64,000 nt of DNA from a virus. A model generated the notes under the pieces. That model had not been told where the DNA came from and did not search any database. It was given only the letters and a program-made list of their open reading frames with translations. Positions 1 through 42,655 of this stretch are shown here, in pieces. A program made the translations under genes and the position numbers. The stretch lies in IMG/VR virus record IMGVR_UViG_3300029328_000212; one strand, 5' to 3'. The stretch's first letter is position 1; each line of letters begins with the position of its first letter.

Positions 1-426
1 TGTGCTATCTGATACTGGATTACTCTGTAAGACATATGGCTGCACTCCTTTCTGACATGAGTATGATTTTTTATATTTCCGTTTATAGGTTTCCATATAA
101 GAATGCACGGTCATTCATCCACGCCTATGCAGGTGTTATAGACGTGGTGTTCTGACCGATATGATAGAATGCCTCCTAAATGTAGTATCTTATGCTGATT
201 GCCGTCTTTTTTCTTTATATAGAGTATGATAGAAATTATGTATGAAATTGCCTTTCTATATAAAAGCGCGAATCGCGTCTTATATGGAAGCTGATTTTCT
301 GCAATAATACTTTTACAAAAATATAGTATTTAAAAATCTGCTGATTTAGTCGTGAAAGATAACTGAAAGAGGAGAAGTAGAAATAGCAGTGAGTCAATGG
401 TTGAAACATGAGGAGGGAGAAATATA

Positions 427-3453: not shown

Positions 3454-4215
3454 TTATTCAAGTTTAATTATATCATTATACAATACCGTGTGCTTTTCAT
3501 CTGTCTGCAAATAGTAGTGATAATGTCCGAAATACCAGTGTTTATAATGCAACTTCCCTTCCAAAGCCTGAAAATAATCTGTCAGCACATCTGCCTTGCT
3601 TGGTTTGTTGAGATAATGCACGATGGCCGTCTGCAAGTCAGTGGCACAGCAGTGGGTTATTACATAATCAACAGTAAAGTCTGCTTTTGCAAGATTATCA
3701 AGCCCTGTCTGCATCTCCTGTTCCGTCGGAAGCTCCTGTGTCCACCATGATTCGCCGATTATGCGATACGGAATCCAGTCTCTGCGGCGTTCCTTAAGCT
3801 TTATTTCGAATTTCGGATCATTTCGGTCAAGAGCACCGCCGGGAATATCATGTGAAGCTGCACCACCAAAAGTAAAGAATGTATGTCCATCAATTTTAAA
3901 TATCTGTCCACGCTCAAGCAGAATGACTTTATCTCTTACGATATGGCGCACCAGACCACCATGCCATTCTTCCAGTGGATATTCTGCAATCATGTCATAG
4001 TTTTCATGGTTTCCCTGAACCCAGAGTGTTGTGAATGACCTCTCGGCAAACCATTTACAGTTCCAGTCAAAGGTTTTATCGTGTGCCCAGCAAAGTCCAA
4101 AGTCACCGGTAACAATTATATAATCATCCTCTGTAAGCTTTAAATCGTGTTTTTTCAAGGATTTGTTTGACAACTTTGAAAAATCATTGTGTGTATCGCC
4201 TGTTAGATAAATCAT
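3454..4215 (-). CDS. calcineurin-like metallophosphoesterase (second copy)
   Basis: Motifs LTGDTHNDF, GDFGLCW, GNHENYDM; likely start MIYLTGD at 4215 with GAAGGTGG RBS rather than 4314. Confidence 0.75.
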   Translation of the reverse strand: MIYLTGDTHNDFSKLSNKSLKKHDLKLTEDDYIIVTGDFGLCWAHDKTFDWNCKWFAERSFTTLWVQGNHENYDMIAEYPLEEWHGGLVRHIVRDKVILLERGQIFKIDGHTFFTFGGAASHDIPGGALDRNDPKFEIKLKERRRDWIPYRIIGESWWTQELPTEQEMQTGLDNLAKADFTVDYVITHCCATDLQTAIVHYLNKPSKADVLTDYFQALEGKLHYKHWYFGHYHYYLQTDEKHTVLYNDIIKLE

Positions 4216-4355
4216 GATCCACCTTCTTCCTGAAATTTTCATCCCCATTCTAAAATATATTACAACTGCTAAATACCTTACTTGGATTATAAACTGACTG
4301 TACATTGCTTTCAAGGCATAAAAATGATACCATTTTGGGCATAAAACGTGAAAAA

Positions 4356-4505
4356 TGAATACGTTTTTGATGTGATTTGTATTAAATGAGTATGATTTTG
4401 ACGTGATTTTTTAATATGAGTACAATTTTTTCCAAAATAAATTGCATGAGTATAATTTCTTCGCATTTTATAGACATGAGTATGATTTTGGCAAAAATCG
4501 AACCA
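4356..4505 (-). promoter_or_regulatory. five tandem ~30-bp repeats each carrying the AGTATGnTTTT promoter half-motif
   Basis: atgaatacgtttttgatgtgatttgtatta / atgagtatgattttgacgtgattttttaat / atgagtacaattttttccaaaataaattgc / atgagtataatttcttcgcattttatagac / atgagtatgattttggcaaaaatcgaacc with 30-bp period, upstream of the phosphoesterase gene pair. Confidence 0.6.
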
Positions 4506-5283: not shown

Positions 5284-7536
5284 CTAGTCATATTTTACAT
5301 TGTAGTCTGTAACTTTTCCATCTCGGATGTACCATACTGAGCTATTATTAAGATGTGTCATCGGTATTCTTTCTGAAACTCCCGGGCCGTAAGCATGAAC
5401 ACTTCCTTTTGGCGCCGTAGTATCATAATATACAACGGTCATTGCAGAACTTACATTGCCCCACATATCAGTGGCAATAGCTTCATACTTGTGAATGCCC
5501 TCTGTCGTACATGTGATGGTTGTAACAACTTCGTCTGTGCATCCGTCACTAAACCATCGATCCCAGCCAATTTCTTTGCCATCCATCTTGATAACACAGC
5601 CAGATTTTTTAAGTCCGCTTCCTGTGTCATGCATTCGTATGGTGATGTTTATAGCCTGATTTGTCCATCCGTTTGTAGTTGGCACAACAGTCACTGTTGG
5701 CGGAATATTGTCCACCCAGTAGGCATATACAGTCAGGTTGTCTTCAAAGTCACAGGTCTTTGTGGCACCCATAGACTCGTTGTAAAGCATTGTTCCCCTG
5801 CCATCAGGCTCTGTATAGTACCCCTTAAATGACCAGCCTTCTTTTGACGGTGCTGACAAAGAATTTTTGTTGTTGTCAACAAGTGGCAGGTCGTTGCCGA
5901 ATGTAGCTGTTGTTGAATCTGAACCACCTGAACCGCCCTGCTTGTTAAAACTGATGACCGGTGTGCGCGGTGTATAATTCGCATATACAGTATGTGGATT
6001 TTTTGCATTAAACATTGTTGTATTTTTTGTGATAGCAACCGTGTGGTTTGCATTAGGTGTCTGCATTAACGGGTTTATGCCATCTGCAAACTTGTTTCCT
6101 TTACCATTGGTTGATGTGAAATATCCGGTAAAATCATAACCAAATTTTTTTGGCGAAGTTACAGTACTTATTGATGCCGGATTATTTACAACTTTTTCAC
6201 TCTGAGCTGTGTATCTGATACCATATTTCTCATATACCTTATCTGTGCCGCCACTTCCTCCAACAGGATTCAGTGTTATTTCATATTCCTTCGGCTCTTT
6301 CTGTGCATAAAGCTTAACCACTCCGCCAGGTACGGTTGTCAGGTTTTTAACTGTCTGCTTTGAGCTGTATGTTGTTCCATTTCCGTCTTCCCGTGTATTC
6401 CAGTTCTTGAATACATAATTGTCCCACGAAACAGATGTGCCATCATACGTACTGAAGTCCTTGTCATAAGTACATGTCTGGCGCATGATAACGCTGCCAT
6501 CCTTGTAGTAGTCAACATAATATGTGTTTGGTGTTACCTTTGCTACAAGGGTTGTGTTGCCGCCTATCGCATAGGATGTAATCTGTCCACCAAAGCCTAC
6601 GGCATAGTTTGTTCCGGATTTTTTCCATACTGTTTCAAGAGTGTAGCCAGGCTTTGTAATCGCAACATTTAATGCGCTTATTGGGGCGAATGATGTCACA
6701 TTCTGCGAATACGCAGATCCGCTCGAATTGACTACGCCTCCGCCTGAATTTGTTTTCAGACCACTTGACAGAGAGGTGTCCTTAACAGCATTACCGTTTC
6801 CATCCACAATCTTATATCGAACATTGTATTTCATTGCGTTTATATCACAATTTCTTCCAGAATGAAAATCACTAAACGCATCATACGAAGCTGAACTCCA
6901 TGAAGCACAATTCTTCAGTGCATTGTAGCCGTTATCTTCATCCATGAAACATACAAAGCCACTTGTATTTACAGTTCCGTTTGAGTTTTCTCCTGTAAGC
7001 GATCCGCTTGGGCTGCTGTTTGCCGGTACTTTTGTCATTATCGGGTGTGCCGTAATATGATATGATGAGCCGCCGTATATCGCTGCTGCTACACCGCTGT
7101 TCTGGGCGCACATTCTGTTATAGACCGTCTTTAAGTCTATGGTATACAGAATATAATAGTAGCCATTACTCTCACACTCTCCCAATGCCCCCGCCGGCTT
7201 TCTGATTGTACTGTCGAGTATCAAGTCGCATTTCTGCGAATATCCACTTCCTGACATAACAAGCCTCCATCCAAGAGTCCTGTATTTCAGGTGAGATGAG
7301 CTTGATGCCTTGTTGCTCTTTGTCACCCAGAAAAGTTCTGAATTGTCGGGGGTGGTGTATATCCATGATGTGTCTGCTACTGAATCATAAAGTTGTTTAG
7401 CATTCTGATATACATGATAATTTATAACACCTCCAGATGCATGTACAGGAATAGCGGGTAATGCTGTCAACGTGATAATTCCCGTTGCAATAACCGCAGC
7501 TGCACGTTTTGCAATCTTTTTTAACCTACTTAACAT
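5284..7536 (-). CDS. secreted cell-surface protein with Listeria-Bacteroides (flg_new) repeat and Ig-like regions
   Basis: Signal peptide MLSRLKKIAKRAAAVIATGIITLTALPAIPVHASG; flg_new-type repeat GYYTEPDG...LTVYAYW; strong RBS AAGGAGGA. Confidence 0.75.
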   Translation of the reverse strand: MLSRLKKIAKRAAAVIATGIITLTALPAIPVHASGGVINYHVYQNAKQLYDSVADTSWIYTTPDNSELFWVTKSNKASSSSHLKYRTLGWRLVMSGSGYSQKCDLILDSTIRKPAGALGECESNGYYYILYTIDLKTVYNRMCAQNSGVAAAIYGGSSYHITAHPIMTKVPANSSPSGSLTGENSNGTVNTSGFVCFMDEDNGYNALKNCASWSSASYDAFSDFHSGRNCDINAMKYNVRYKIVDGNGNAVKDTSLSSGLKTNSGGGVVNSSGSAYSQNVTSFAPISALNVAITKPGYTLETVWKKSGTNYAVGFGGQITSYAIGGNTTLVAKVTPNTYYVDYYKDGSVIMRQTCTYDKDFSTYDGTSVSWDNYVFKNWNTREDGNGTTYSSKQTVKNLTTVPGGVVKLYAQKEPKEYEITLNPVGGSGGTDKVYEKYGIRYTAQSEKVVNNPASISTVTSPKKFGYDFTGYFTSTNGKGNKFADGINPLMQTPNANHTVAITKNTTMFNAKNPHTVYANYTPRTPVISFNKQGGSGGSDSTTATFGNDLPLVDNNKNSLSAPSKEGWSFKGYYTEPDGRGTMLYNESMGATKTCDFEDNLTVYAYWVDNIPPTVTVVPTTNGWTNQAINITIRMHDTGSGLKKSGCVIKMDGKEIGWDRWFSDGCTDEVVTTITCTTEGIHKYEAIATDMWGNVSSAMTVVYYDTTAPKGSVHAYGPGVSERIPMTHLNNSSVWYIRDGKVTDYNVKYD

Positions 7537-7599
7537 AAAAATCCTCCTTTCTTAGATATTTATAAATTTTACTTACAGTATAAGTATGATTTTTTCTTT

Positions 7600-7656: not shown

Positions 7657-9174
7657 TTACCAGCTTATATCTTTAGCGTCTTCCCATTCCCATGTAGATT
7701 CGTTAAAGGTTGAACCACTCACAACCTTAGCAACATTTGGTCGCATTTCATATATTGCATTAGCACTATCGTTATCAATTCTTGCTATAAGTCCACCAGC
7801 GGAATAGACTCCGTTACTAGAACCGCCTGATTGAAAACTTCCTGAGTAACTGTTACCAAGTTTACTCTTGACAAAAGCATCTGCATAAGATTGTGCTTCG
7901 TTCCAGTTATGTGCATATACTTTGTAACATCCACCGCCTTTGTCTGTCCATGTAATCACTCCATACTGCACATTATTATTAGCAGGCTCGCTCACGGTAT
8001 TATCTCCGTTTTCCGGATTGCTTGCAGGTGCAGAGCTTCCGCTTCCTGAACTGCCACCTGATGAGCTGCTGTTATGCTTCTTTCCTGATGAGGTGTTGTT
8101 CTTCTTTGAACCGCTGTTGTTCTTTCTGCTTCCCTTGTCAGCAGAGCTGCTGTTCTCAGTCACTTCCTGTTTCTTCACGCTTCCGTTCACGCTGATTGAA
8201 GTCTGGTTTCCTGCGGAATCCCCTGCATCAATCTTGAAGCTGTAGCCATTGCTCTTATCGAGCGTCTTGGTATAGTCGCCGTCTGCCAGCTTTCCACGGG
8301 TGTTGTCTGTTACATCAAAAACTACCTCTGATGCGTCATTTATATCTTTCTCAAGCTCTATTGTGCTTCCGTCAGCAAGCTGCTGTCCGTTGTATGATAT
8401 AACAGGCGCTGTCTTGTCGCAGATTACAAGAAACGACACATCTGCTGTATTGCCGCCTGCATCTGTGGCTGTTACTGTTGTAAGATAGAAGCCCTCGCCC
8501 ATGTTTTTGAGGTCATCTGCTGTCTGGGCTGCGCTTTCAGTACCGTCAGCCTTCTCAGTGCCGTCGGTTTTCTCTGTTGCATCCTTTTTATCAGCCTTCT
8601 TGTCCTCTTTTTTGTCACTCTTTTTTGAAGCTTCAGACTGCTTTGCGGCTTCTGCGTCATTTACAGTCTTCACCTGCTCAAGATAGCCTGCAATTGACTG
8701 GTCGTTTACCTCGGCAAGGTCTCCGAGTTTCTCAGCCTTTGTGGAATACTTAAGGTCTGTGATGTCTGTTGCATTGACATACTGTGACATGTCTGTGCTC
8801 ATGTCGTTGACATATGTATATCCACTGTTTGCGACATCTCCCTTTGCCTTGATTTCTGGTGCAACGGTATCCTGCACAGCTACCTTCACCTTGTAATCCT
8901 TTGCATCATTACCTGTGCCGAATGTAACCTTTACGGTGTACTCTCCTACCTTGTCAGTGTTTACCGCTGTCGCATCGAGCTTGTACTCATCATCGCCGAT
9001 AGCGTCTCCGTTTGAGTGCTTGAAGTAGTCTGATACCTTGAAATTGAAGGTGTAACCTGCCTCAACTTTCATTTTGTCCTTTGTCTGCTCTATACTGTCA
9101 GACTTGCCGCAGCCTGTGAATAATGACGCTGTCATTGTTCCACACAGGAGGGCCATTAAAATTTTCTTTTTCAT
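7657..9174 (-). CDS. lipoprotein with low-complexity Ser/Gly/Asn-rich C-terminal region
   Basis: Lipobox LFTGCGKS after signal peptide MKKKILMALLCGTMTAS; K/D/E-rich and S/G-rich low-complexity tracts. Confidence 0.7.
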   Translation of the reverse strand: MKKKILMALLCGTMTASLFTGCGKSDSIEQTKDKMKVEAGYTFNFKVSDYFKHSNGDAIGDDEYKLDATAVNTDKVGEYTVKVTFGTGNDAKDYKVKVAVQDTVAPEIKAKGDVANSGYTYVNDMSTDMSQYVNATDITDLKYSTKAEKLGDLAEVNDQSIAGYLEQVKTVNDAEAAKQSEASKKSDKKEDKKADKKDATEKTDGTEKADGTESAAQTADDLKNMGEGFYLTTVTATDAGGNTADVSFLVICDKTAPVISYNGQQLADGSTIELEKDINDASEVVFDVTDNTRGKLADGDYTKTLDKSNGYSFKIDAGDSAGNQTSISVNGSVKKQEVTENSSSADKGSRKNNSGSKKNNTSSGKKHNSSSSGGSSGSGSSAPASNPENGDNTVSEPANNNVQYGVITWTDKGGGCYKVYAHNWNEAQSYADAFVKSKLGNSYSGSFQSGGSSNGVYSAGGLIARIDNDSANAIYEMRPNVAKVVSGSTFNESTWEWEDAKDISW

Positions 9175-9246
9175 TGATATTTCTCCTTCTCTTCAATCTG
9201 ATCTGTGTTTCATGGAACTAAAATCTGTTCCTTTTTTACATATATA

Positions 9247-9287
9247 GTATGTTAGATTTCATTTTAGCAAATGGCCTTCTATATAAG
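9247..9287 (-). promoter_or_regulatory. bipartite promoter-like element (AGTATG..TTTT half plus GGCCTTCTATATAAG half)
   Basis: agtatgttagatttcatttt ... ggccttctatataag, 33-34 bp register, ~75 bp upstream of start at 9174. Confidence 0.6.
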
Positions 9288-9469
9288 ATTTTTTCTCTTT
9301 CGGGCAGATATCTGAATTTGCCCTTAAAAAACCACTACATGTAGTATAACATAATTATTCGTAGGAGTATAGCACTAATTTACTATCAATTTATAATTTG
9401 ATAGTAAATATAATAGTTCACAAACCTCATTTCATTCCACTGACAAATATGACTAATCTTTTTTTTTTC

Positions 9470-14987: not shown

Positions 14988-15046
14988 TTTTTCTTCCTTT
15001 CCCCACAAAATCCTCTTTTGTGATTTATTTTAAATTTGTCATTATA

Positions 15047-15060
15047 AGTATGATATTTTT
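15047..15060 (-). promoter_or_regulatory. AGTATGATATTTTT promoter half-motif upstream of subtilase gene
   Basis: On the coding strand reads TTGAAAAAAATATCATACTTATAATG, ~60 nt upstream of the start codon. Confidence 0.5.
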
Positions 15061-15069
15061 TTCAATGAA

Positions 15070-16604: not shown

Positions 16605-16639
16605 AGCTTATGCCTATCCTTTCTTTGTAATCTGTTATG

Positions 16640-16652
16640 AGTATGATTTTTT
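16640..16652 (-). promoter_or_regulatory. AGTATGATTTTTT promoter half-motif
   Basis: Coding strand AAAAAATCATACTCATAAC ~45 nt upstream of start 16604. Confidence 0.5.
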
Positions 16653-16711
16653 ATTCTTGCGGAAAAACCGGAAGCAGCATATGCCCCCGGTTCATATAAT
16701 TTCGCATCTTC

Positions 16712-19729: not shown

Positions 19730-20029
19730 TTAATTTGCAACTCTTTGTCCGTCCATTTTAATGATTCTTCTGATTATCCTGTAATTTCCAGCAAAACGGC
19801 TTTCAAAATAACACCCATTTCTTACAACTATATCATTTAAGCACGCCGCCTGCGTATCCAAAAATTGTCGCATTCCTTCTTTGAGTGTCGTCTGCTCTTT
19901 TGTATCAAGCTGATTAATTTCATCTTCTGACAGTGTCCTGCCACTCAAACTTTGTATTATTACAGGGTCCGCCTTGTCTACTTCATATGGTTCGTTGTCT
20001 CTGCTGATGCGTCTGATTAGTTCTTCCAT
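19730..20029 (-). CDS. hypothetical protein (99 aa)
   Basis: ORF with promoter motif pair at 20049-20090 upstream. Confidence 0.5.
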   Translation of the reverse strand: MEELIRRISRDNEPYEVDKADPVIIQSLSGRTLSEDEINQLDTKEQTTLKEGMRQFLDTQAACLNDIVVRNGCYFESRFAGNYRIIRRIIKMDGQRVAN

Positions 20030-20048: not shown

Positions 20049-20090
20049 TTTTAATATGAGTATGTCAGAAATAATGTTTGCAAATGGCCT
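20049..20090 (-). promoter_or_regulatory. bipartite promoter-like element
   Basis: agtatgtcagaaataatg ... ggccttccatataaa, immediately after the terminator hairpin GACGGGAtttttCCCGCC of the upstream gene. Confidence 0.55.
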
Positions 20091-20165
20091 TCCATATAAA
20101 AAGACGGGATTTTTCCCGCCTTTTTCGCACCGTCTACAGATATTTGCCCGCCTCATACATCTTTG

Positions 20166-20900: not shown

Positions 20901-23060
20901 CTACAGATATTTGCCAACGATAACATCAATATCACTTGGTTTTACATCGCAGTTATCATCAAGACCGAATCTTATGTCTGCTTCATCCGGATTGTCGGTA
21001 ATGACACCCCTTGCCTTAGCATTGAATGTAAACAGGTCATACAGATTAGGTTTTTTAACATCAACCATAGCCTTACAGGTAACGACTACTGATGGCAGAT
21101 TGCTCTCCACATTGATTCCGCCGTATCCAGCACGCACATGGTCAGCGGTAAGAGCCATGTCACACCATATGAGCACCCTCTCCCTAAGGTCAAAAATGAC
21201 CGGAATGCATGTGGTTGTTGCTGATGCAAGGTCCATTCGCTGTTTTACTGTAGACGGCTCAAAGATTTCCCCGCTCTTCATATCATTTCTCGTCATAAAG
21301 CCAAAAGCTGCATGCTCCATTTTCGAGAAATTCTCATCTGAAAAATTGTACACGTTAAATGCCGCATATCTCGCACCTGCAGATAAAGCTTTCTCAATAT
21401 CAAGGTCGATAAACTCAGCCACACCTTCTCCGTCAACAGGTCCGCCATTTGTAATGTCACCAGAGTGGCAGATTCCAAACCTACTTGACTTGAGATTTGT
21501 ATATGATACATGCTCAAGACAATCCCAGTTGTCAGCAAAAACTGCTACTGACAGGTCAACATCAATAATATTATCCTTGGTATTAGTCCACCAGATGAAT
21601 GGTCTGATAATCTTTGCACTGTCGTCTATTGCAATACGTGACCCTCTTGAAACAGCAGTCATTGTCTTGCCTGCACTTCTTAAGGAGAATGGAACTGTAT
21701 AATTCTTAAGAGCTTCATCAATATATACCTTTCCAAGGAACTCTCTGTTTCCATATATATTAACAAGAGTACTCTCACAGACAGCAATAACCATTTTCAT
21801 CACATCCTCAGGAATAGTTTTTGTTTTGTTATTCTTGACATAGTATGATCTCGCAAGATTTCCCTTTGGAAAGAAAACTCTCATGTCATCACTGCCATCA
21901 AGCTTATTGATAAAATGCTCCCTCACCTGCAAAAGCACTGTAGAAGATACATCTTTTGCAACAGAAGCAAAGCTCATGATAACAGCTTTTCTGTCAGCAT
22001 CCTTGTCAAATGTGCGAAGAAGAAAATCAATTCTCCTTGCAAACTCTCCCGGGCGCTTCTTAAGCAAGGAAACAACGGTGTTTACATCACCTGACGCAAC
22101 GGCTGCATCCACTCTGCCTGCAAACGACTTAATTTTACCATCATTTCTTATGACACCAAATGCCTGAACAGCTTTTGTATAGCGCTCATTCTTAGCAAAC
22201 TCACCCGGGTGCAGTTTTTCGCCTACACGGATCCATCTTCCGGCATATCTGCTCATATCCTCAGCTGCATTTCCACAGCCTGCAAGCAGGTTCATGATAA
22301 TTCTGCGCTCGCCTCTCTTTAAGTTTCTGAACTTAGTGTTTTCTGCAAGACTGACGTCACCATCAGACATTGCTGTAACAAGGCGCAGTACATCAGTTGC
22401 AGTTTTTATGTATTTTCTGCATAAATAGCCATCTGTGTCAACACCAGTATCAACAAGCAGTCTGCATACGCACGCAGCATTCTCCTTAAACGGAATTTCA
22501 TCTGGCAGAGTAACCTTTGCTGAATTTAAAATAAAGATCATGTCCTCAACATCACTCTTTGAAAGAGATGTCTTTGATGCACAGAGATTGTTAAAGATGT
22601 CATTTAAGTCATCAAACGAACCTGCCTCAAGCACCTTAACCTTTGCAACGTTAAAAAGAGGTACTCTCTCCTTTTTCTCCTCATAAGGCAGAAGGGTGCC
22701 AAAAGACCAGTAATGAACGATAGCATTGAAATACAGTTCAAAATCATCTTTCTCCATGACAGACTCAGGGAAATTAGGATACATTGGATTGTACACCCTG
22801 TCAGCACCGGTGATTTCCTTAAGTCCGTTTACAAGGGTATTATACATCACTTCACGGTTCTTAGCTTTCATGTGCACAAGCTTGTCAAAAAGAGCCTCTG
22901 ACATTGTATAGCCAAAGACTTCTATGTTCTTATTCATTGTTGCAACAATCTGCTTATTCTTTTCACCGACTGCAGCAGAAAGAGATTTAAGCATATCGTC
23001 ATCGTTAATGAACACTCTGTTTTTTCTTCTTAAAATGATGTTAAATACTGAATTTTCCAT
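20901..23060 (-). CDS. large hypothetical protein (about 720 aa)
   Basis: Long uninterrupted ORF; probable start MENSVFNIIL at 23060 with GGAGAAAAA RBS; no confidently recognisable catalytic motif. Confidence 0.7.
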   Translation of the reverse strand: MENSVFNIILRRKNRVFINDDDMLKSLSAAVGEKNKQIVATMNKNIEVFGYTMSEALFDKLVHMKAKNREVMYNTLVNGLKEITGADRVYNPMYPNFPESVMEKDDFELYFNAIVHYWSFGTLLPYEEKKERVPLFNVAKVKVLEAGSFDDLNDIFNNLCASKTSLSKSDVEDMIFILNSAKVTLPDEIPFKENAACVCRLLVDTGVDTDGYLCRKYIKTATDVLRLVTAMSDGDVSLAENTKFRNLKRGERRIIMNLLAGCGNAAEDMSRYAGRWIRVGEKLHPGEFAKNERYTKAVQAFGVIRNDGKIKSFAGRVDAAVASGDVNTVVSLLKKRPGEFARRIDFLLRTFDKDADRKAVIMSFASVAKDVSSTVLLQVREHFINKLDGSDDMRVFFPKGNLARSYYVKNNKTKTIPEDVMKMVIAVCESTLVNIYGNREFLGKVYIDEALKNYTVPFSLRSAGKTMTAVSRGSRIAIDDSAKIIRPFIWWTNTKDNIIDVDLSVAVFADNWDCLEHVSYTNLKSSRFGICHSGDITNGGPVDGEGVAEFIDLDIEKALSAGARYAAFNVYNFSDENFSKMEHAAFGFMTRNDMKSGEIFEPSTVKQRMDLASATTTCIPVIFDLRERVLIWCDMALTADHVRAGYGGINVESNLPSVVVTCKAMVDVKKPNLYDLFTFNAKARGVITDNPDEADIRFGLDDNCDVKPSDIDVIVGKYL

Positions 23061-23536
23061 AATGAATTTTTCTCCTTTGATAAAAACTGGGAATTGACAG
23101 CAGTACATCAACTATCTCGGCTGACCAAAATCAGCCAAACGAGATATACCATATTATAGAAGGAACTGCTGTCATATCCGGTTCCGCAGTAATCGTCGCA
23201 ACTGAAATCAACTTATAAGGTCCAAGAAGAAGGAAGCTGCAACATATCTGCTTTTGAATTATTATGTTCCGGAAGTTATCAACACTAGATGATCTGCTAT
23301 TTGTTTTATAATTAAGAAGGAAGTCTTAATATAGCCGGAACAAAGACTGTGGCAATCGCGTCAGGTAATTTATAAATGATCCATATGTATTCGTAGAAGG
23401 AACCTGACGCATAAGCAAACGTCTGCATTATTTGCCGTTATAATGAGCTTAATGCAGACAATGTTTTGCTTTTCCGCAATCGTAAAAAATATCCAGTACC
23501 GAAACAGTCGGTAGGCAGTTTTAGTACTGGATAAAA

Positions 23537-23610
23537 TGCGCCCGGAAGGACTCGAACCTTCGACCGTCCGGTTATGAGCCGGATGCTCTAACCAATTGAG
23601 CTATGGGCAC
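23537..23610 (-). tRNA. tRNA with CAU anticodon, most similar to tRNA-Ile2 (lysidine) type
   Basis: Reverse complement GTGCCCA TA GCTC AATTGGTTA GAGC A TCCGG CTCATAA CCGGA CGGTC GAAGG TTCGAGT CCTTC CGGGCGC A folds as cloverleaf (one A7.C66 mismatch); D-arm, anticodon stem-loop and variable loop closely resemble Bacillus tRNA-Ile2. Confidence 0.7.
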
Positions 23611-23797
23611 TAAATGTCCGGAATCAAAAATAGTCGGCAGACGCTTTTCTCATCCAGACAAAATCTCCCTGCAGGAACTGCACCTGCAATGCTGCTCTGA
23701 TGGCAGATGGGAGACGAAGCAGCTTAGCCCTGCTTCTTTTATAATTATGAGGTTTTTATGAGTCTGCCACCGCAAAAGAATGGAAACAATGGCAGAA

Positions 23798-23871
23798 TGA
23801 CTCCGGCGGGAATTGAACCCGCGTCACAGCCTTGAAAGGGCCGTATCACTAACCAGCTAGACCACGGAGCC
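23798..23871 (-). tRNA. tRNA-Glu (UUC)
   Basis: GGCTCCG TG GTCT AGCTGGTTA GTGA T ACGGC CCTTTCAAGG... anticodon loop CTTTCAA, T-arm GCGGGTTCAATTCCCGC, acceptor pairs including one G-U. Confidence 0.75.
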
Positions 23872-23944
23872 ATGCGTGGCAGCATTGCTGTCACGTTGTA
23901 CATATTTGAAAGGTTGCTTATGTTGCACAGGATTTCCCATGCAG

Positions 23945-24016
23945 CAGAAAGATTGGGATTTGAACCCAAATTTGTGGTTTTGGAGACCACTGTGCTACCA
24001 CTTACACTATCCTTCT
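23945..24016 (-). tRNA. tRNA-Trp (CCA)
   Basis: AGAAGGA TA GTGT AAGTGGTA GCAC A GTGGT CTCCAAA ACCAC AAAT TTGGG TTCAAAT CCCAA TCTTTCT G; anticodon CCA. Confidence 0.75.
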
Positions 24017-24038
24017 ATTTTCCCGGTCATGCCGGATA

Positions 24039-24336
24039 TGGAGCTGACGGGAATCGAACCCGTGTCCAGAATTAGTACTCATACAGAACCTTTACGCCGT
24101 TTTTGCGCCTGTAGTCCAGTCTAGCCCACCACTCTGTTCCTATGTATACAGAGAACTTCTAACACGCTTGTTTTTGAACCTCAGCCCCTACCAGCATTAT
24201 CTTGGAACGTTTTGGTGCAGCCATTAGGCTGCTGCTAAACATCTATTGTTTGCGTTTAATTTTAAGTTTTGATGATTGCGTCATCACTCGGGCGAATTCT
24301 GCACTTTTGTAACCCTGTCGAAACCTTTACAACCCC
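24039..24336 (-). ncRNA. ssrA: tmRNA (ssrA), compact ~298 nt
   Basis: 5' GGGGTTGTAAAGGTTTCGACAGGG (conserved tmRNA box GATTCGACGGG-like) and 3' tRNA-like end GGACACGGGTTCGATTCCCGTCAGCTCCA with acceptor pairing to the 5' end; internal frame GCA AAC AAT AGA TGT TTA GCA GCA GCC TAA gives candidate tag ANNRCLAAA. Confidence 0.7.
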
Positions 24337-24361
24337 GGATGTAAAGCTTTTTAAGGCTTAG

Positions 24362-24433
24362 TTGCAGGAGCGGGATTTGAACCCGCATTCCAAAGGTTAT
24401 GAGCCTTGGGGTTAGCCGTTAACGTATCCTGCG
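24362..24433 (-). tRNA. initiator-like tRNA (CAU) with non-canonical D-arm
   Basis: CGCAGGA...CTCATAA...GCGGG TTCAAAT CCCGC TCCTGCA A: C1.A72 mismatch and CTCATAACC loop as in bacterial tRNA-fMet, but D-stem and anticodon stem pair imperfectly. Confidence 0.5.
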
Positions 24434-24561
24434 ACAATTATGCCTCTTCTCGCCTCTCTGCTTCTCCCTGTCGGTTCTTCGCATAAAAACGAACTTAACG
24501 GACTTGACCGTGGGCATAGTGTGTTTTGTGTTTTATGTATGGCTCTCACCGCTACATCATA

Positions 24562-24603
24562 AGTATGATAGAAATATTTTTCATTTATGGCCTTCTATAT
24601 AAG
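24562..24603 (-). promoter_or_regulatory. bipartite promoter-like element upstream of tRNA/tmRNA cluster
   Basis: agtatgatagaaatattttt ... ggccttctatataag; a second AGTATGATTTTTATTTTT copy at 24648-24665. Confidence 0.55.
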
Positions 24604-24691
24604 TTTTTAAAAAGTATTATATTTTTCAGGCATTGTATACTGTCTTATAATATAAGTATGATTTTTATTTTTCTAAAAAACATCAAAATTC

Positions 24692-25247: not shown

Positions 25248-25520
25248 TTAATTGAGCAATTCCTTAAGTGCTTTTCCAGCCTTGAACTTAGGAGCCTTAG
25301 ATGCTGCAATTGTCATATCAGCGCCAGTCTGTGGATTTCTTCCTGTTCTTGCTGCTCTCTCAGATACCTCAAATGTACCAAATCCGATAAGCTGTACCTT
25401 CTCGCCTTTTTTGAGCTGCTCTGTTACTGTTCCAATGAATGCATTTACTGCCGCCTCTGAGTCCTTCTTTGTAAGTCCTGTTTTCTCCGCAATTGCTGCG
25501 ACTAACTCTGTCTTTGACAT
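25248..25520 (-). CDS. hup: DNA-binding protein HU
   Basis: [88 protein letters not shown]: canonical HU/IHF fold sequence, 90 aa, AGGAGGAC RBS. Confidence 0.9.
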
Positions 25521-25577
25521 ATTTTATGTCCTCCTTTGATAATTCAGTGCCTGTAGCACATTTTTTCTTACACCATA

Positions 25578-25619
25578 AGTATGATAGATTTATTCCTTTA
25601 TTATGGCTTTCTATATAAG
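25578..25619 (-). promoter_or_regulatory. bipartite promoter-like element upstream of HU gene
   Basis: agtatgatagatttatt ... ggctttctatataag. Confidence 0.55.
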
Positions 25620-25685
25620 TTTTTATTATTTAAAAAATAATCTCCCAGCTTATTACCGGGAGACTATCCTTATATAATCCTGCTT

Positions 25686-26777: not shown

Positions 26778-27029
26778 CCTCCTGTTTTTTTTATTTATGC
26801 CTATATTATAAGTATGATAGATTTTTCATTCATTTTTTGTGCACAAAAAAAGACGCCTTATTCAGACGCCTTTTTGCTGTTATTCAGTTTTCCTTCGAGG
26901 AGCTTTTCAGTATTGTCCTTTACGTATTCAGCAAGCTCTTTTAAGATGTACGAATTTTCAACGTACTCATCAAGTTTTTCTGCTTTTATTTTTCTGCTGA
27001 AATCATCAGGCTCAATAAAGGTTTTTTCT

Positions 27030-29250: not shown

Positions 29251-29305
29251 AAAAAATTAACCTCTTATTAATTGCAAACCTCTTGATTCTCGTATTTCTA
29301 TATAC

Positions 29306-29347
29306 AGTATGTTAGATTTTCTGACTGCAAATGCTTTTCTATATAAG
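29306..29347 (-). promoter_or_regulatory. bipartite promoter-like element upstream of helicase gene
   Basis: agtatgttagattttctg ... gcttttctatataag. Confidence 0.55.
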
Positions 29348-29417
29348 AAACACACGGTTTGCATATAATACACACAAAAAAGGACGGATTTCTCCGCCCC
29401 CTTCTGATCTTCGTATC

Positions 29418-29611: not shown

Positions 29612-30517
29612 TTATTCATCCACCGGAATCTCATCCTCTGGTACATCATCGTCAAAAAATTCATCTTCATCCTCGCCGTAAATCTTTGCAAGGCTGTCTT
29701 TTAACTTTGCATTTCTCATGCTTGCAATTTCTTCATCTGTATAGAAATTACTGAGATACTCCGTCGCGTAAGCGACTATCTCCATTGTTTTGTCTTTCCA
29801 TGAATAAAACTCTCCGCACACAGGACATTTCATTGTACGTTTGACTGCTCTTGCCTGTATTGCTCCATCAACAAACACTCCCGAACCGCAGTGTAAATGG
29901 TTTCTGTCCTCTTCCGCATGTTCTCCGTATGTCTTTACCCACGGATAATCTGTCCTGTTTTCCGGCAGGTCTGTCTTTGCCCTGAATTTTCTGTTTGCGG
30001 CAATCTGATACTGTGTTAAAACCACACCTTTTTCAGTCTTTATCTTTTTAGGGTCTCTTGTAAGGTTTCCTATGAAGTAAATCTGATTGGAAATTTCCTT
30101 ATGCTTTGCGAGATATTTTGCGGCTTCTTCGTCGCTTCCCATTTCCGCAATCTTTTCTGCAAAAATAGGCTCGATATAAGCCAAAGTTCCTGCTGATACA
30201 TTCGCCTGATCATGTCCGGTCTCTGCGCAGTGCGGACAGTGTGATGTCTTGTTGATATTTCTTGTTGTGAAAACACCCTTGATTAACACTATGTCATGCT
30301 TTTTCCAGTTGCTCATTTCGGTTGCTATAACAGGTGTTTTTGTTATAATAACCGGTATATCATGTCTTGCATATGAACTTCCATCTTCTACGTTTCGCGG
30401 ACTTCTCACAACATCCACGTAGCACATGGCATAGGCATAACCGCCGTCTTCGGCAGCCTTAAGTTTCGGCTCTTTATATACCTGGCCGAGTAGAAATACT
30501 GTATTTTGTCTTGCCAA
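29612..30517 (-). CDS. SSB-like protein with two OB-fold-like segments and two zinc-ribbon motifs
   Basis: Two segments resembling SSB N-terminus (VFLLGQVYKEPKL; IYFIGNLTRDPKK) and two CxxC...CxxC ribbons (CPHCAETG; CPVCGE); acidic C-terminal tail DDDVPEDEIPVDE. Confidence 0.5.
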   Translation of the reverse strand: MARQNTVFLLGQVYKEPKLKAAEDGGYAYAMCYVDVVRSPRNVEDGSSYARHDIPVIITKTPVIATEMSNWKKHDIVLIKGVFTTRNINKTSHCPHCAETGHDQANVSAGTLAYIEPIFAEKIAEMGSDEEAAKYLAKHKEISNQIYFIGNLTRDPKKIKTEKGVVLTQYQIAANRKFRAKTDLPENRTDYPWVKTYGEHAEEDRNHLHCGSGVFVDGAIQARAVKRTMKCPVCGEFYSWKDKTMEIVAYATEYLSNFYTDEEIASMRNAKLKDSLAKIYGEDEDEFFDDDVPEDEIPVDE

Positions 30518-30597
30518 TTTAATTAGCCCTCCTGTTAAAATTTCCGGAGAATTCCGGATTTTACTTTGATTCCACGGATAGTATGATTTTTTCTTTG

Positions 30598-34786: not shown

Positions 34787-34883
34787 ATGTTGTTTTCTCC
34801 TTTCTTCTTTTCTCTTTTACGAAGAGTATGTTTTTTCTTTCAAAAAAGAAAAGCCTTCCATATAAGGAAGACTTTTTTTGGTA

Positions 34884-35579
34884 TTAAATTTTGTTCTGCA
34901 CTGCAAGCATGAACTCTTTTATCTCCAGTGCATTGCTCTTGTACACTCCGGCGATTGCCTGTCCGGATGCGGTTCTCGACTTTGAGAACACATTGGCAAA
35001 TTTTCTGTATTTTTCAAGCATCTGTCTGCATCTGGTCCCAACGATGTACCAGAAAGCTGTTTTGTCGGACAGCCAGAGCTGCTTTACAGAAAGTCCCGCT
35101 GCATACTGTTCTTTTGATGACAGGATCATGCCGTCTTTATCCGTCTCGCAGGATTTTATTTCGTTAAACCCTGTATTGGTTTTAAAGTCCAGTATATCCA
35201 TCAGCTTTTTGCTGAGAGGAAATTTCTCTTCTGGCTTAAAACGTCCCTTGATAATATACTGTTCCCTTCCGCCTGCTGCATCGCCAAGAATGCCATAAAT
35301 TTCAGAACCAGATACTATTTGTCCTTGCTTTTCAAGCCAGTCCTTTGCCATTCCATACGGTCTGTATGTCTTGCCACATGCAAAACAATGGCATCCCCCG
35401 TTTCCCGGATATATCTTATTGTGGGAAAATATCTTCTCCTCATGATGCTCCGGGTTTGGACATTCTGAAAAATACGTTGCGCCCTTCTTTTTCACCGGGA
35501 TGCCCAGTATCTCACAAAGAGCGAGTGTATCTACGTTTTCACAAATTGCTTCTGTGTTGTAATTTACCTGTGCGCTCAT
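34884..35579 (-). CDS. DNA primase CHC2-type zinc-finger protein
   Basis: CPNPEHHEEKIFSHNKIYPGNGGCHCFACGKTY matches the DnaG N-terminal CHC2 zinc-finger pattern; remainder unassigned. Confidence 0.65.
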   Translation of the reverse strand: MSAQVNYNTEAICENVDTLALCEILGIPVKKKGATYFSECPNPEHHEEKIFSHNKIYPGNGGCHCFACGKTYRPYGMAKDWLEKQGQIVSGSEIYGILGDAAGGREQYIIKGRFKPEEKFPLSKKLMDILDFKTNTGFNEIKSCETDKDGMILSSKEQYAAGLSVKQLWLSDKTAFWYIVGTRCRQMLEKYRKFANVFSKSRTASGQAIAGVYKSNALEIKEFMLAVQNKI

Positions 35580-35818
35580 TATTGCTTCCTCCGTTTCTCT
35601 TTATATATAAGAAGTATGTTAGAATTTTTAAAGCCGGACATATTGTCTGTTTTCTTTGCTTTTTCCTTTAAGTGGTGGTATTTTATATAGAAAGACAATG
35701 ATGAGTTCTGAGTCAAACATACTATATATGGAAATGTAGATAATTTGACATTTGTTAAGAATTTATATAGAAGGAACATAATTAAGCACTACACTATGTA
35801 GTAGCTTTTGTATCAGAT

Positions 35819-36838
35819 ATGGAGGAACGGAAAATGGGATTTTTCAGCATAGAACTAACCGATTACAATGGAAAAAAGTTTTATAATGTAACAACGGACA
35901 AATGGCTCAGGGAGTATCCTGAAGATTATAAGAATTACATAAAGAAAACATGGGAGGTTAAGGAACACAGGATGTATAAGCTGATTGCCCTCATGGACGA
36001 GCGCGATTCATACATGATAGGCCTTCTCAATGTATTTCAGGCAACACTGGCAAGAGACCTCAATGATAAAGATTACAAATTTGTGGCAAAGCTCATTGAA
36101 GTACAGCGCCGCCGAGTCTACAGGGAGGATATTTATCTTGGCCTGCTGTTTGCCTATATGCACAGGCAGACAAGAAAAGCCATATACAAGATGGTCTTTT
36201 CTGATGACATTGACAAATATGACGAGGAAAGCCTGCGTACAGTACTTGTATTTGCAGGAAACTTCATAGATATTACAGGATATCTGAAACCTGGCGAGGT
36301 TATCCCGGAGTCTGTATATCTGGAAGCAAACAAGAAGTTTTTCGACACTTTTGTAAGAAAAGATAAATTCTGGGAAGATTTTCTTGTTGAGGGAAGCATC
36401 AAAGCAAATGGCACAGAGGGCGGCGAAATTGTAAGACGCTTAAAGAGCCTCTGCGGCTGCTATTATATCCACGAATATGACAAGACAGGAAAAAAAGCTG
36501 AATTCGTCTGCCGAGACTATGACTACCTTACAAGTTCATACCGCGCGAACACCCGCGTCGGTGATATGATCTTCAACGCAAGGGAGAAATGTGGGCGGAC
36601 ATCGTTTCGTAAAGCCATTCCGGCCAACAAAGCTAAAGAGTCAGATTATGCGAAACTGGGGAGCACCTCAAACTTTGGTTATGGAATCCTCTCATCCCTG
36701 ACCATTCTTGTTGCGGCAAGTGGAGAATGGGCTAAATGCCCTGATGTGTGCGAGAATGTTGATTGTTTTTATCCTGACGAGAAACTCATAGCCACTCTTG
36801 GTATTCCCATCGGTTATTCTATTCCTATCTGGAATTAA
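35819..36838 (+). CDS. hypothetical protein (339 aa)
   Basis: Plus-strand ORF with GGAGGAAC RBS; upstream carries the promoter motif in plus orientation (TTATATAGAAGGAAC at 35766-35780). Confidence 0.6.
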   Translation: MEERKMGFFSIELTDYNGKKFYNVTTDKWLREYPEDYKNYIKKTWEVKEHRMYKLIALMDERDSYMIGLLNVFQATLARDLNDKDYKFVAKLIEVQRRRVYREDIYLGLLFAYMHRQTRKAIYKMVFSDDIDKYDEESLRTVLVFAGNFIDITGYLKPGEVIPESVYLEANKKFFDTFVRKDKFWEDFLVEGSIKANGTEGGEIVRRLKSLCGCYYIHEYDKTGKKAEFVCRDYDYLTSSYRANTRVGDMIFNAREKCGRTSFRKAIPANKAKESDYAKLGSTSNFGYGILSSLTILVAASGEWAKCPDVCENVDCFYPDEKLIATLGIPIGYSIPIWN

Positions 36839-37412: not shown

Positions 37413-37530
37413 TTTGTTTTCCTCCGTTTTTCTAAGTTGTTTTTATTACACACATAGTATGATATTTTTTTTATTTTTCGTTTTCATTGTCTGAAAACAA
37501 TTTTCTGTTCATCATGTTCCTCTTTCCATT

Positions 37531-37812: not shown

Positions 37813-38023
37813 TTTCTTTGTAAATCTCCTTATTTAGTTTTCTACATTGCAAGTATGATTTTTTTTTCTAACGTTTTTTCAATACATGCCTGCTGTGCGA
37901 AAATATAAAAATAAAGTACCAGATTTTCAATCATCTAAAAGTCGTCCTGCATGAAACATAAAAAGCGCAAAATAAAAACACCCCGGCAAATCAAACCGGA
38001 GTGCATTTTTGTGGCATAAACCT

Positions 38024-39731: not shown

Positions 39732-39783
39732 ATTGTTCCTCCTTCTATCTTGTTTTGCTACATATTAAGTATGTTTTAAACTT

Positions 39784-40278
39784 TTAAAACGACATTACCG
39801 CCTGGTCCTTGCCCTCCAGATATATATGTACGACGTCATCGCCACCGTTTAACTGCTGGTTTATTTTAAGTACCGTAATTGTATCCGCTATCTTTTTTGT
39901 AAACTGTGTATCAAATCCAGTGGACACGTAAATGTTCATTCCGTCGGTTCTTATTCCGTCAAACAGCTGACTGCTTACAGTTTCGTTCCACTTGGCAACT
40001 TCATCTTTTGTAAACTTGATGTTAATTATCGTTCCTGTCTGAGATATTGAGTATGCCGGAACAAAATCATGCAGAAAATCAAAAACTTTATCGCTTGAAT
40101 AAATTCCATAATTTGTATCAACTGATATGTTGTACAATCTGGACTCCTCGACTACAATTCCGCAGTAATTGTCATCCGTATTCTCTGTGCTTTCTTCTCT
40201 CTCTGCGCCGCATCCTGTAAATGTAAAACACAGCATTAGCAGGATACATAAAATTTTCTTTTTCACATATCTTCCCAC
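39784..40278 (-). CDS. lipoprotein (164 aa)
   Basis: Signal peptide plus lipobox FTFTGCGAE. Confidence 0.65.
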   Translation of the reverse strand: MGRYVKKKILCILLMLCFTFTGCGAEREESTENTDDNYCGIVVEESRLYNISVDTNYGIYSSDKVFDFLHDFVPAYSISQTGTIINIKFTKDEVAKWNETVSSQLFDGIRTDGMNIYVSTGFDTQFTKKIADTITVLKINQQLNGGDDVVHIYLEGKDQAVMSF

Positions 40279-40298
40279 CTTTTCTTTTTTCTGCTTTA

Positions 40299-40340
40299 AG
40301 TATGATTTTTTCTTGTCTGCGCTTTTGCTTTCTATATAAG
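40299..40340 (-). promoter_or_regulatory. bipartite promoter-like element
   Basis: agtatgattttttcttg ... gctttctatataag upstream of lipoprotein gene. Confidence 0.55.
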
Positions 40341-40508
40341 ATTTTCGGTTTTCGCATTATACAGTGGTTTTTCTTTTATAATTTATGTAAAATGTAATCA
40401 AAACTTATATAGAAGGCTATAATTGCAAAATAAAAAAAACATACTATTTGTAGTAAAATAATCATGTTATCTTGTATAAGCGCAATTTAAAGGAGGAATT
40501 ATCTAAAA

Positions 40509-42297: not shown

Positions 42298-42655
42298 TTT
42301 TCTTAGCCTCCTTCAAAAGCGGATTTGAATTGACTTTCTCCTCTGCCTTCTGAAAGGCAATAGCTTCACTAAATGTCATGTTCTCCTCCATTCTCCTTTG
42401 TTTCTGTTACAAAACAAGTATGATTTTTTTATTATTAATCACCATCTTAGTTGTAACAATATTCAGTTACTATTTATCATTTTATACCTGTATTCAGTTA
42501 TATTCAAGATTTATTTTATATAAATTTTACTTTTTATGTATTTTATCCAAAAAATATGTTAATATATTTATGTAAATGGAAAAAATTGGCAATATTACTC
42601 CCCCACATCAAAATCCCCACAAAACACAGATTAGGATTAATAAAGAGGTAATTTT

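Follow-up and report, generated by a model that had tools for sequence, protein, structure and literature searches.

What reads the genes of the 64,000-nucleotide stretch of DNA filed as IMG/VR virus record IMGVR_UViG_3300029328_000212 (the window, by which we mean the whole of this stretch), if one short motif stands in front of most of its transcription units? An earlier note, drawn to positions 9,247 to 9,287, had described the motif as a bipartite, promoter-like element unlike the sigma-A consensus, and had named the sigma encoded at 41362-42297 as a possible reader. Here we argue that the motif sites are well supported as promoters, that they come in two architectures, and that they rather probably belong to a conjugative plasmid-like element whose own divergent sigma factor reads them on the host core RNA polymerase. 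That this sigma serves these promoters is something that we infer from homology and co-occurrence.

The core of the motif is CATACT (AGTATG on the other strand), of which the window holds ~29 sites that lie between genes, share the orientation of the next gene and follow an A/T-rich stretch; at the index site the coding (minus) strand reads CTTATATAGAAGGCCATTTGCTAAAATGAAATCTAACATACTATATATGTAAAAAAGG. Counted alone, the hexamer occurs 43 times on the minus strand of the window, where ~15 copies are expected. A position weight matrix (PWM) of the proximal half, built from 25 window sites and applied at a score of ≥14, gives 26 window matches, 25 of them on the minus strand, compared with a mean of 0.42 and a maximum of 3 in shuffled windows. 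The motif is thus as pervasive as the earlier note had claimed, and far beyond chance, and a scan of the window finds AGTATG within a few bases of every coordinate listed there. The contig MT835474 overlaps the window at 37.1-64 kb and adds 56.6 kb to it, and on the resulting 120.6-kb composite the same matrix marks 51 sites, 48 of them on the minus (gene) strand; the 56.6-kb continuation, which lies outside the training set, holds 24 further matches. At the PWM threshold this amounts to 4.2 matches per 10 kb of the element, a density of about one per 2.4 kb, and the bases that we number C-12 and C-8 are unchanged in 50 of the 51 sites.

We number CATACT as a -10 hexamer (-12 to -7) because a pyrimidine-purine step is conserved 6-7 nt downstream of it, and all positions given below are relative to the start site so predicted; in an alignment of 28 sites, a purine lay 7 nt downstream in 27. 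The hallmarks of a canonical -10, namely A-11, T-7 and a purine start 6-8 nt downstream, are all present at CATACT, if the predicted start is accepted. The statement that neither half of the motif is -10-like therefore has to be withdrawn, since CATACT shares A-11 and T-7 with TATAAT and lies at the canonical distance from Y-1/R+1. Neither a canonical -35 (TTGACA at 16-18 nt) nor a TG extended -10 accompanies it. We also considered a TATAAT-like hexamer directly after CATACT as the true -10 and rejected it, as A occupies its position 2 in only 13 of 28 sites and no -35 or TG lies at a fitting spacing.

The sites fall into two classes. Class B (32 sites) consists of an A-tract at -23 to -13 followed by CATACT, with no -35 element: A is found at -22, -21, -18, -16 and -14 in 28-31 of the 32 sites, T or A stands at -13, and CATACT itself is invariant. 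On its 3' side come five variable positions, T or C at -1 (29/32) and a purine at +1 (32/32). Across these 32 sites the information content at -37 to -30 is zero, and positions -15/-14 are A/A, leaving no TG extended -10. Class A, with 12 sites in the window and ~23 in the composite, carries a distal box, YTTATATRGAARGC, upstream of CATACT. Its consensus, tYTTATATrGAArGC(c)At, covers -49 to -32, with T-47, T-44, T-42 and G-40 invariant in 24/24 aligned sequences; in the proximal part aaaTCTAt usually takes the place of the A-tract, and +1 is a purine in 23 of 24 sites. The gap between the halves is always 25 nt (TTATATRGAA-N25-CATACT). Written as CTTATATAGAAG, the distal box is a 10/12 palindrome that spans -48 to -37, is centred at -42.5 and keeps one orientation in all 24 sites, so that, given the predicted +1, it shows the fixed spacing and the position near -41.5/-42.5 that mark the dimer site of a class II promoter.

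The 12 bipartite window sites all point towards a gene, nine of them on the minus strand and three on the plus; they were recovered by searching for TTATATAGAA with up to two mismatches, followed after 24-26 nt by CATACT with up to one mismatch. The bipartite form that had been ascribed to every site is therefore confined to these 12, whereas the other ~17 carry the A-tract and CATACT only; and the 33-34 bp reported between the halves proves to be exactly 25 nt in all 12. The reversed copies described before plus-strand genes are class A sites at 35718, 40440 and 49712. A looping or hairpin model, in which the distal ATAGAA forms an inverted repeat with the proximal TTCTAT, was dropped as this relation is missing in relative L008, and an Rfam scan returned only tRNAs and a transfer-messenger RNA (tmRNA) above threshold, with no match at the motif.

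The placement of the CATACT sites is what makes their identification as promoters well supported. Most are followed, 20-130 nt downstream, by a start codon in the same orientation, and ~26 of the 31 upstream gaps of ≥90 nt hold a co-oriented CATACT at this distance. Terminator-like hairpins followed by a T-run are enriched (32 vs 14.5 ± 4.8 in shuffles) and many motif sites directly abut one; because these sites come directly after a terminator, no space remains for another promoter. TTGACA-N16-18-TATAAT pairs, on the other hand, are not enriched (49 vs 46.9 ± 6.9 in shuffles). The promoter reading put forward earlier thus finds support in intergenic and gene-co-oriented placement, often after terminator-like hairpins, in the -10/+1 geometry, and in conservation among diverged relatives. 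The broader suggestion that the whole 64 kb runs on one promoter type applies to most units, which do carry CATACT, but these are divided between two architectures, and several genes are motif-free: the integrase, the HTH_3 (helix-turn-helix) regulator, a small plus-strand gene near 4600, the IS200/IS605 insertion, and the genes at 20901-23111 and 55924-56562. The first four of these form a telling set, for regulators, recombinases and foreign DNA would be expected to use host sigma-A. Class A occurs for the most part in front of genes for replication, DNA handling and HU and of the tRNA/tmRNA cluster; it precedes genes for DNA polymerase III alpha, RecD2 helicases, a topoisomerase and HU, the tRNA/tmRNA cluster, and several genes without known function. 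The sites of the window are as follows, with the position of the C of the hexamer and what lies downstream or nearby.

53 to 102, minus strand: class A, C at 65; fires off the left end of the window
216 to 265, minus strand: class A, C at 228
4355 to 4490, minus strand: five -10-like boxes (aaaatCATACTCAT twice, ATACTCAT, GTACTCAT and GTATTCAT), period ~31 nt; upstream of the metallophosphoesterase genes
7576 to 7599, minus strand: class B, C at 7588; surface-protein gene 5284-7536
9239 to 9288, minus strand: class A, the index site, C at 9251; gene 7657-9174
15040 to 15063, minus strand: class B, C at 15052; 1826-amino-acid S8 protease/Flg_new surface protein
16633 to 16656, minus strand: class B, C at 16645
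20052 to 20101, minus strand: class A, C at 20064; operon 19730-20029 and downstream genes
24555 to 24604, minus strand: class A, C at 24567; tRNA-Met/tmRNA/tRNA cluster 23537-24433
24648 to 24671, minus strand: class B, C at 24660; second promoter of the tRNA/tmRNA cluster
25571 to 25620, minus strand: class A, C at 25583; HU gene 25248-25520
26804 to 26827, minus strand: class B-like (aaaatctatCATACT), C at 26816; SPFH gene
29299 to 29348, minus strand: class A, C at 29311; RecD2-like helicase; the orthologous promoter of L006 keeps the box at N25
30573 to 30596, minus strand: class B, C at 30585; single-stranded-DNA-binding (SSB) domain gene 29612-30517
34818 to 34867, minus strand: class A, C at 34830; DNA polymerase III alpha; aligned with the orthologous promoters of L006 and L007
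35606 to 35629, minus strand: class B-like, C at 35618; primase-like gene 34884-35579
35681 to 35730, plus strand: class A, C at 35718; gene 35819-36838
37449 to 37472, minus strand: class B, C at 37461; SSB gene
37845 to 37868, minus strand: class B, C at 37857
39761 to 39784, minus strand: class B, C at 39773
40292 to 40341, minus strand: class A, C at 40304; back-to-back with 40403-40452
40403 to 40452, plus strand: class A, C at 40440; gene 40509-41216
42410 to 42433, minus strand: class B, C at 42422; small-ORF/sigma operon
44194 to 44217, minus strand: class B match inside the VWA-protein open reading frame (ORF) 43469-45301, C at 44206; score 20.5
47031 to 47054, minus strand: class B, C at 47043; MoxR-type AAA gene
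49619 to 49642, minus strand: class B, C at 49631; 821-amino-acid gene
49675 to 49724, plus strand: class A, C at 49712; DnaJ-domain gene
55124 to 55147, minus strand: class B, C at 55136
57229 to 57252, minus strand: class B, C at 57241
61564 to 61587, minus strand: class B, C at 61576; 1401-amino-acid NlpC/P60 protein

Three of these places call for comment. The tandem array reported near 4356-4505 does comprise five boxes (4355-4490), but only two are exact and three are degenerate, of the form (A/G)TACTCAT/GTATTCAT. It is flanked by the metallophosphoesterase gene 3454-4314 and by a small divergent gene on the plus strand, Tandem Repeats Finder gives it a period of 31 and 2.5 copies, and it could consist of stacked promoters, of a sigma-titrating array or of iterons. 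The match at 44206 may be an internal promoter for the downstream 142-amino-acid gene, or a chance copy. Finally, a second distal box, TTTATATAGAAGG, is seen at 35762-35805 on the plus strand, 44 nt downstream of 35718, with CACTACACTATGTAG instead of CATACT at 25 nt; this could be an additional operator, or else a promoter, degenerate or alternative.

How far the motif is confined to this element can be judged from two scans. In 90 kb of Agathobacter rectalis DNA with housekeeping content, there are no PWM matches at the threshold used for the element, which agrees with confinement to the element, but this control was chosen by way of a presumed host. When 596 Gb of species-representative genomes were searched for exact copies of CTTATATAGAA-N25-CATACT, 24 loci turned up with one match each, vs 9 matches in the 120-kb element, and among the 24 loci only one has further copies, that of an uncultured gut Eubacterium sp. 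metagenome-assembled genome (MAG). On this 25-kb contig (L029, MAG UMGS1550) there are three promoters of this type, two of class A and one of class B, at 5415 (minus), 6642 (minus) and 6734 (plus), and the contig is probably part of a related element that was binned together with its host.

What, then, might recognize these promoters? Only one sigma-like ORF occurs in the 120 kb, and it lies within the following arrangement.

41362 to 42297, minus strand: divergent sigma-70-family gene, 311 amino acids; candidate specificity factor for the CATACT promoters
42254 to 42379, minus strand: small ORF, 41 amino acids, overlapping the sigma start codon
42656 to 43003, plus strand: Xre-type HTH_3 regulator gene (Pfam HTH_3, E 2e-13), divergent from the sigma operon and without CATACT upstream

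Judged by its sequence, the product of 41362-42297 is a sigma-70-family protein, as the earlier note had it, though a very divergent one. It matches phrog_351 'RNA polymerase sigma factor' at E 1.5e-8, and in a comparison of the family profile with the PDB residues 49-122 align to region 2 of SigA/RpoS, including the STY...IR motif (E 0.003-0.014), so that the sigma-70 region 2 is recognizable in it. The relatives reinforce this assignment: the A2 family profile finds RpoS at 1e-9; homologue P0006 (51% identical) reaches 45.4 bits with TIGR02937, above its cut-off, and has PF04542; and the L037 homologue has Pfam matches for regions 2, 3 and 4 (Sigma70_r4) and matches RpoD/SigA genes at 1e-16. 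With NCBIfam, the sigma itself gives only marginal matches to SigF, SigG and SigK. Its few close homologues all come from metagenome assemblies, ~176 distant ones were found among 1.8 billion representative proteins, and none was found in IMG/VR, GTDB genomes or PLSDB.

The sigma operon bears a class B promoter of its own, which would imply autoregulation with positive feedback, and upstream of it lie two weak sigma-A-like promoters, including TTGAAT-N17-TAAAAT at 42479-42507. A small ORF (41-75 amino acids) overlaps the sigma start in all lineages examined (L005 177-305, L004 2842-2982, L036 6671-6841, L037 6503-6730 and L008 3971-4141), with a sequence shared among close relatives (MTFSEAIAFQKAEEKVNSNPLLKEAK...); it may encode a co-factor, an anti-sigma factor or a leader peptide, or act as a translational coupler. 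The divergent HTH/sigma arrangement recurs in L036, and the product of 42656-43003 is a candidate regulator, one of the HTH proteins that might bind the distal box.

The relatives show promoters that accompany the sigma through considerable divergence. In L005 and L004, whose sigmas are 64% and 51% identical, the A-tract and CATACT are kept before the small-ORF/sigma operon. Several hundred further relatives are linked by DNA polymerase III alpha, which served as the anchor for the next loci. Among them, L006 (polymerase 67% identical) has CATACT before each of five genes, and at its polymerase and RecD2 promoters the distal box (CCATATAGTA, CTCATATAGAA) stands at exactly 25 nt, in flanks that diverge; L007 (55%) likewise keeps CATACT. 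In more distant relatives the hexamer itself changes, to cCCATATT-N5-TGTAa in L008 (~48%), CATATTAA in L036 (~48%) and CATAnTAA in L037 (37%), with the N5-T-R start spacing and a TGTAA-like start region retained. Each of these three has a sigma homologue near the polymerase gene (E 8e-29 to 2e-40), preceded by the small overlapping ORF. In L008 (contig ERZ27256925, MAG-type), seven intergenic sites carry a perfect palindrome, CTGTACAG-AA-N24-C(A/T)TATT, again centred at -42.5, at coordinates that include 5126, 5535, 8308, 16861, 19327 (plus) and 20913 (minus). A still more distant sigma homologue, P0015 (locus L010), was dropped, its intergenic regions showing no clear motif.

The model that we propose would work as follows. 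CATACT would serve as the -10 hexamer, with transcription starting at the purine 7 nt downstream, and region 2 of the 41362-42297 protein, bound to the host core RNA polymerase, would read A-14/W-13 together with CATACT. The non-consensus C-12 and C-8 would make these sites poor substrates for the host sigma-A and hence keep the promoters private to the element. At class B promoters, the A-tract with its near-invariant A-14 would stand in for the -35 contact ('-10-only / extended -10'). At class A promoters, the distal box looks more like an operator, bound by a separate dimeric regulator that the element presumably encodes and that would sit where a class II activator does, than like one half of a sigma site; alternatively, it could be the operator of a plasmid-wide repressor, as in the RK2 KorB class I sites, and we favour the activator because the spacing is strict. 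The sigma operon with its own promoter would form a positive feedback loop, whose expression the weak sigma-A-like promoters could prime. The start site, the pairing of proteins with elements, and an activating as opposed to a repressing distal box are what we infer from these patterns.

The -10 recognition helix offers one further hint. Aligned to region 2.4 of E. coli sigma-70, it reads STYFGYIIRHAVQS vs STYATWWIRQAITR, with His at the Q437 position and Gln at the T440 position (E. coli sigma-70 numbering), and Q437H is a classic suppressor of a T-to-C promoter change at -12 (PMC2613000). The His would fit the invariant C-12, yet the match is only suggestive, because the residue at this position differs among lineages (H, D, H, E) that all share C at -12, and this is the first of several points that weigh against our model. 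The sigma's own domain matches are weak: residues 47-230 score 38.8 bits with TIGR02937, under the cut-off of 42.9, region 4 matches PF08281 at E 0.0044 with 17.1 bits vs a cut-off of 25.7, and an AlphaFold2 model from a five-sequence alignment, at a pLDDT (predicted local distance difference test) of 57, is too poor for a fold search. The -10 resembles the CATA-type -10 of sporulation sigmas. Training the PWM on A/T-rich upstream DNA inflates the conservation of the class B A-tract. The A. rectalis control was chosen from one 82.7%-identical HU gene and stands in for a presumptive host. Lastly, only ~120 kb of the element has been seen, and another specificity factor or polymerase could lie elsewhere on it.

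Three rival explanations fit the data less well. The one that survives best, which we nevertheless regard as unlikely, is that a host sigma reads the motif, either sigma-A assisted by element-encoded activators or an appropriation factor, or a CATA-type alternative sigma, in which case the sigma of the element would govern just some of the genes, or something else. CATACT does keep A-11 and T-7, the key bases of a -10, and the distal box at -42.5 occupies the position of an activator for a host holoenzyme; however, a sigma-A site would be expected to drift towards TATAAT, whereas C-12 and C-8 stay fixed, and class B offers sigma-A neither a -35 nor a TG motif. An alternative sigma gains some credit from the likeness of the hexamer to CATA-type sites of sigma-E/sigma-K and from the presence of sporulation genes in Lachnospiraceae (spoIIE and yabP in L001), but no sigma-E/sigma-K -35 lies at the proper spacing, and dependence on a sporulation sigma is implausible for replication, tRNA and conjugation genes. 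The empty A. rectalis control and the absence, among the genomes scanned, of any with the bipartite form in clusters argue against both versions, as do the family-wide conservation of the sigma homologue and a -10 that varies with the lineage.

A second rival, to which we give very little weight, takes the -23 to +1 motif for the promoter of an element-encoded non-canonical RNA polymerase, T7/N4-like single-subunit or YonO-like, that lies outside the 120 kb or in one of the unannotated large ORFs. Class B is indeed a contiguous block of ~24 nt without a -35, like the promoters of phage single-subunit polymerases; the element is incomplete, and ORFs of 821, 736 and 507 amino acids are unannotated. 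Against this, the large ORFs scanned have no Pfam or PHROG RNA polymerase match, no ORF of the 120 kb contains a DxDGD motif, two large unannotated ORFs have no PDB sequence match, a sigma gene with the same promoter is conserved in all relatives examined, and the -10/+1 geometry suits a sigma-70-type holoenzyme. That the repeats are not promoters at all, and instead are iterons, partition or nick sites, methylation or defence-avoidance motifs, or 5'-leader RNA elements copied with gene cassettes, is hardly credible, for the iteron-like boxes at 4355-4490, the palindromic distal box and the copy inside an ORF at 44206 are outweighed by strict gene co-orientation, a fixed short distance to the start codon directly 3' of terminators, the Y-1/R+1 signature, retention at orthologous gene fronts in diverged relatives, and a dispersal, at the density given above, too wide for an origin or partition site.

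The window has ~39% GC (35-43% across its length) and encodes a tyrosine recombinase, S8-protease/Listeria-Bacteroides-repeat surface proteins, HU, an SPFH protein, a MoxR/VWA pair, a DnaJ-domain protein, a VirB4/TraC-like ATPase and a 1401-amino-acid NlpC/P60 protein, as well as the IS200/IS605 insertion; nearly all genes lie on the minus strand. Its replication genes specify a RecD2-like helicase, two SSB-domain proteins, DNA polymerase III alpha, an RNase T-type exonuclease and a primase-like zinc-ribbon protein. The RNA genes at 23537-24433 (minus) comprise two tRNA-Met genes, tRNA-Glu, tRNA-Trp and a tmRNA with the tag ANNRCLAAA, an unusual gene for a conjugative plasmid. The 56.6-kb extension adds a VirD4-type coupling protein, a topoisomerase, an SMC-like ATPase and at least one further RecD2 helicase. 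The IS200/IS605 unit (50704-52255, minus strand; a Y1 transposase and a TnpB-like gene) sits without the motif between motif-bearing genes, which is consistent with a recent foreign insertion.

Between 24 and 49 kb the window is 96-99% identical to three unannotated 'Bacteriophage sp.' faecal contigs, MT835474.1, MT836173.1 and MT835874.1 (L002, L003). We considered and rejected a phage identity, as these GenBank records are UNVERIFIED, unannotated virome contigs, the genes found are instead those of conjugation and plasmid-type replication, and no phage structural genes occur among the ORFs scanned in the 120 kb; the three contigs are probably misfiled plasmid fragments. The 736-amino-acid protein of 20901-23111 (minus), which has no Pfam or PDB match, matches PHROG 33734 (unknown function) at E 5e-91, a sign that relatives of the element are already in phage protein collections. 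As to the host, the HU gene 25248-25520 (minus) shows 82.7% DNA identity to that of A. rectalis (NZ_CP143948.1, 62768-63013), which hints at the host lineage or at a captured host gene. With ftsH, tilS, proS, metK and pflB on it, the A. rectalis record 'plasmid unnamed1' (251 kb) looks chromosomal. We treat the element as a conjugative megaplasmid-like replicon of >120 kb from a presumptive Lachnospiraceae host of the human gut.

Because lineage-specific promoters accompany the sigma homologues, the sigma, the -10 variant and the operator appear to change together across a Lachnospiraceae megaplasmid-like family. We tentatively extend our model, with less assurance than we have for the single element, to a family of conjugative megaplasmids that reaches from the gut element to Butyrivibrio pCY360-like plasmids and that would be insulated by an orthogonal sigma, lineage-specific CATAnT -10-only promoters in front of nearly all plasmid genes, among them those for the plasmid's replisome, HU and tRNA/tmRNA, and a co-evolving operator at -42.5 that grades a replication/maintenance sub-regulon. 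If this is true, such a plasmid would carry a portable, self-contained transcription system and be expressed in the same way in any host that supplies core polymerase, which would explain the host-independent expression, and possibly the broad host range, of large gut and rumen plasmids. Lachnospiraceae and gut Clostridia could likewise be engineered with such an orthogonal sigma/promoter pair, which comes with its own operator, and CATAnT promoters together with the sigma would become a signature for finding such plasmids, now filed as 'bacteriophage', in metagenomes. As the -10 variant, the distal palindrome and the sigma sequence co-vary across lineages, the recognition code can be put to a direct test.

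Comparable elements are on record. Hodor megaplasmids are conjugative plasmids of the human gut, >300 kb in size, with 44.6-47.1% GC, Rep_3 and ParABM, multiple sortases and giant surface proteins (PMC12934698), and they resemble our element as large conjugative plasmids of gut Bacillota misfiled in viral databases. They nevertheless form a compositionally different group: GC is 39% here, no Rep_3, Par or sortase match occurs among the ORFs scanned of this incomplete element, and transcription, a sigma or a promoter motif are not discussed in PMC12934698. pCY360 of Butyrivibrio proteoclasticus (PMC2914790) has in common with it the DNA polymerase III alpha/PHP, SSB, exonuclease, VirB4 and VirD4 gene set as well as an intergenic tCCATAnTA; its polymerase, however, is only 37% identical, and PMC2914790 mentions neither a sigma nor a promoter motif. 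No earlier description of the motif or the sigma was found in the searchable literature, including the pCY360 genome paper and the 2026 Hodor preprint.

Among promoters, the -10 elements of the sporulation factors sigma-E, sigma-K and sigma-G (CATACA-T, CATA---TA) are alike in starting with CATA and ending in T, and the variants CATATTAA and CCATAnTA come closer still. They differ in that no cognate -35 (ATATT at ~14 nt, or AC at ~17 nt) is conserved here, and region 2.4, RCIENEIL in sigma-E/sigma-K, is IIRHAVQS in our sigma. The distal box recalls class II activator promoters, such as those with CRP/FNR sites at -41.5 or the lambda PRM promoter with cI, and the KorB class I operators of RK2/IncP, which lie just upstream of the -35 and coordinate replication, maintenance and transfer genes plasmid-wide. 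In all of these a palindromic site at a fixed position, here -42.5, adjoins or replaces the -35, at many promoters of one replicon, but our box is asymmetric (G-40 invariant, orientation fixed) and is paired with a non-sigma-A -10.

The closest known parallels, by analogy, are the phage sigma factors and SigN of plasmid pBS32. SPO1 gp28 and gp33/34, and T4 gp55 with its -10-only late promoter TATAAATA, are phage sigmas with dedicated promoter sets; there too a mobile element steers the host core polymerase to private promoters, and T4 late promoters also lack a -35. Our element differs in its genes, which over 120 kb include those for conjugation and plasmid replication and none for phage structural proteins, in showing no sign of an early/middle/late cascade, and in its consensus. 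SigN (ZpdN) of pBS32 in Bacillus subtilis is a divergent plasmid sigma with a nearly plasmid-confined regulon, and sigN has sigma-A promoters together with an auto-activated promoter (PMC6751061), a layout that the sigma operon described here mirrors. In both cases a plasmid sigma goes with a consensus promoter of its own, the motif of our element being confined to it in silico and its sigma dependence being putative. SigN promoters, however, are -35/-10 pairs (TTTACGT ... GATAAA) in place of -10-only sites or sites with a distal palindrome, and SigN drives a damage-induced subset of genes, whereas here nearly every transcription unit would be involved. A tblastn search of PLSDB (72,556 plasmids, the membership of pBS32 being unconfirmed) with our sigma gave no match at E ≤ 0.01.

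Taken together, the unusual part is a conjugative plasmid with nearly all its units, from replication, HU and conjugation to surface proteins and tRNA/tmRNA, behind one private promoter. That a mobile element may carry its own sigma and private promoters is an established principle; what would be new is the plasmid-wide scope, the -10-only/A-tract architecture, the operator fixed at -42.5, and the co-variation of these parts across a family.

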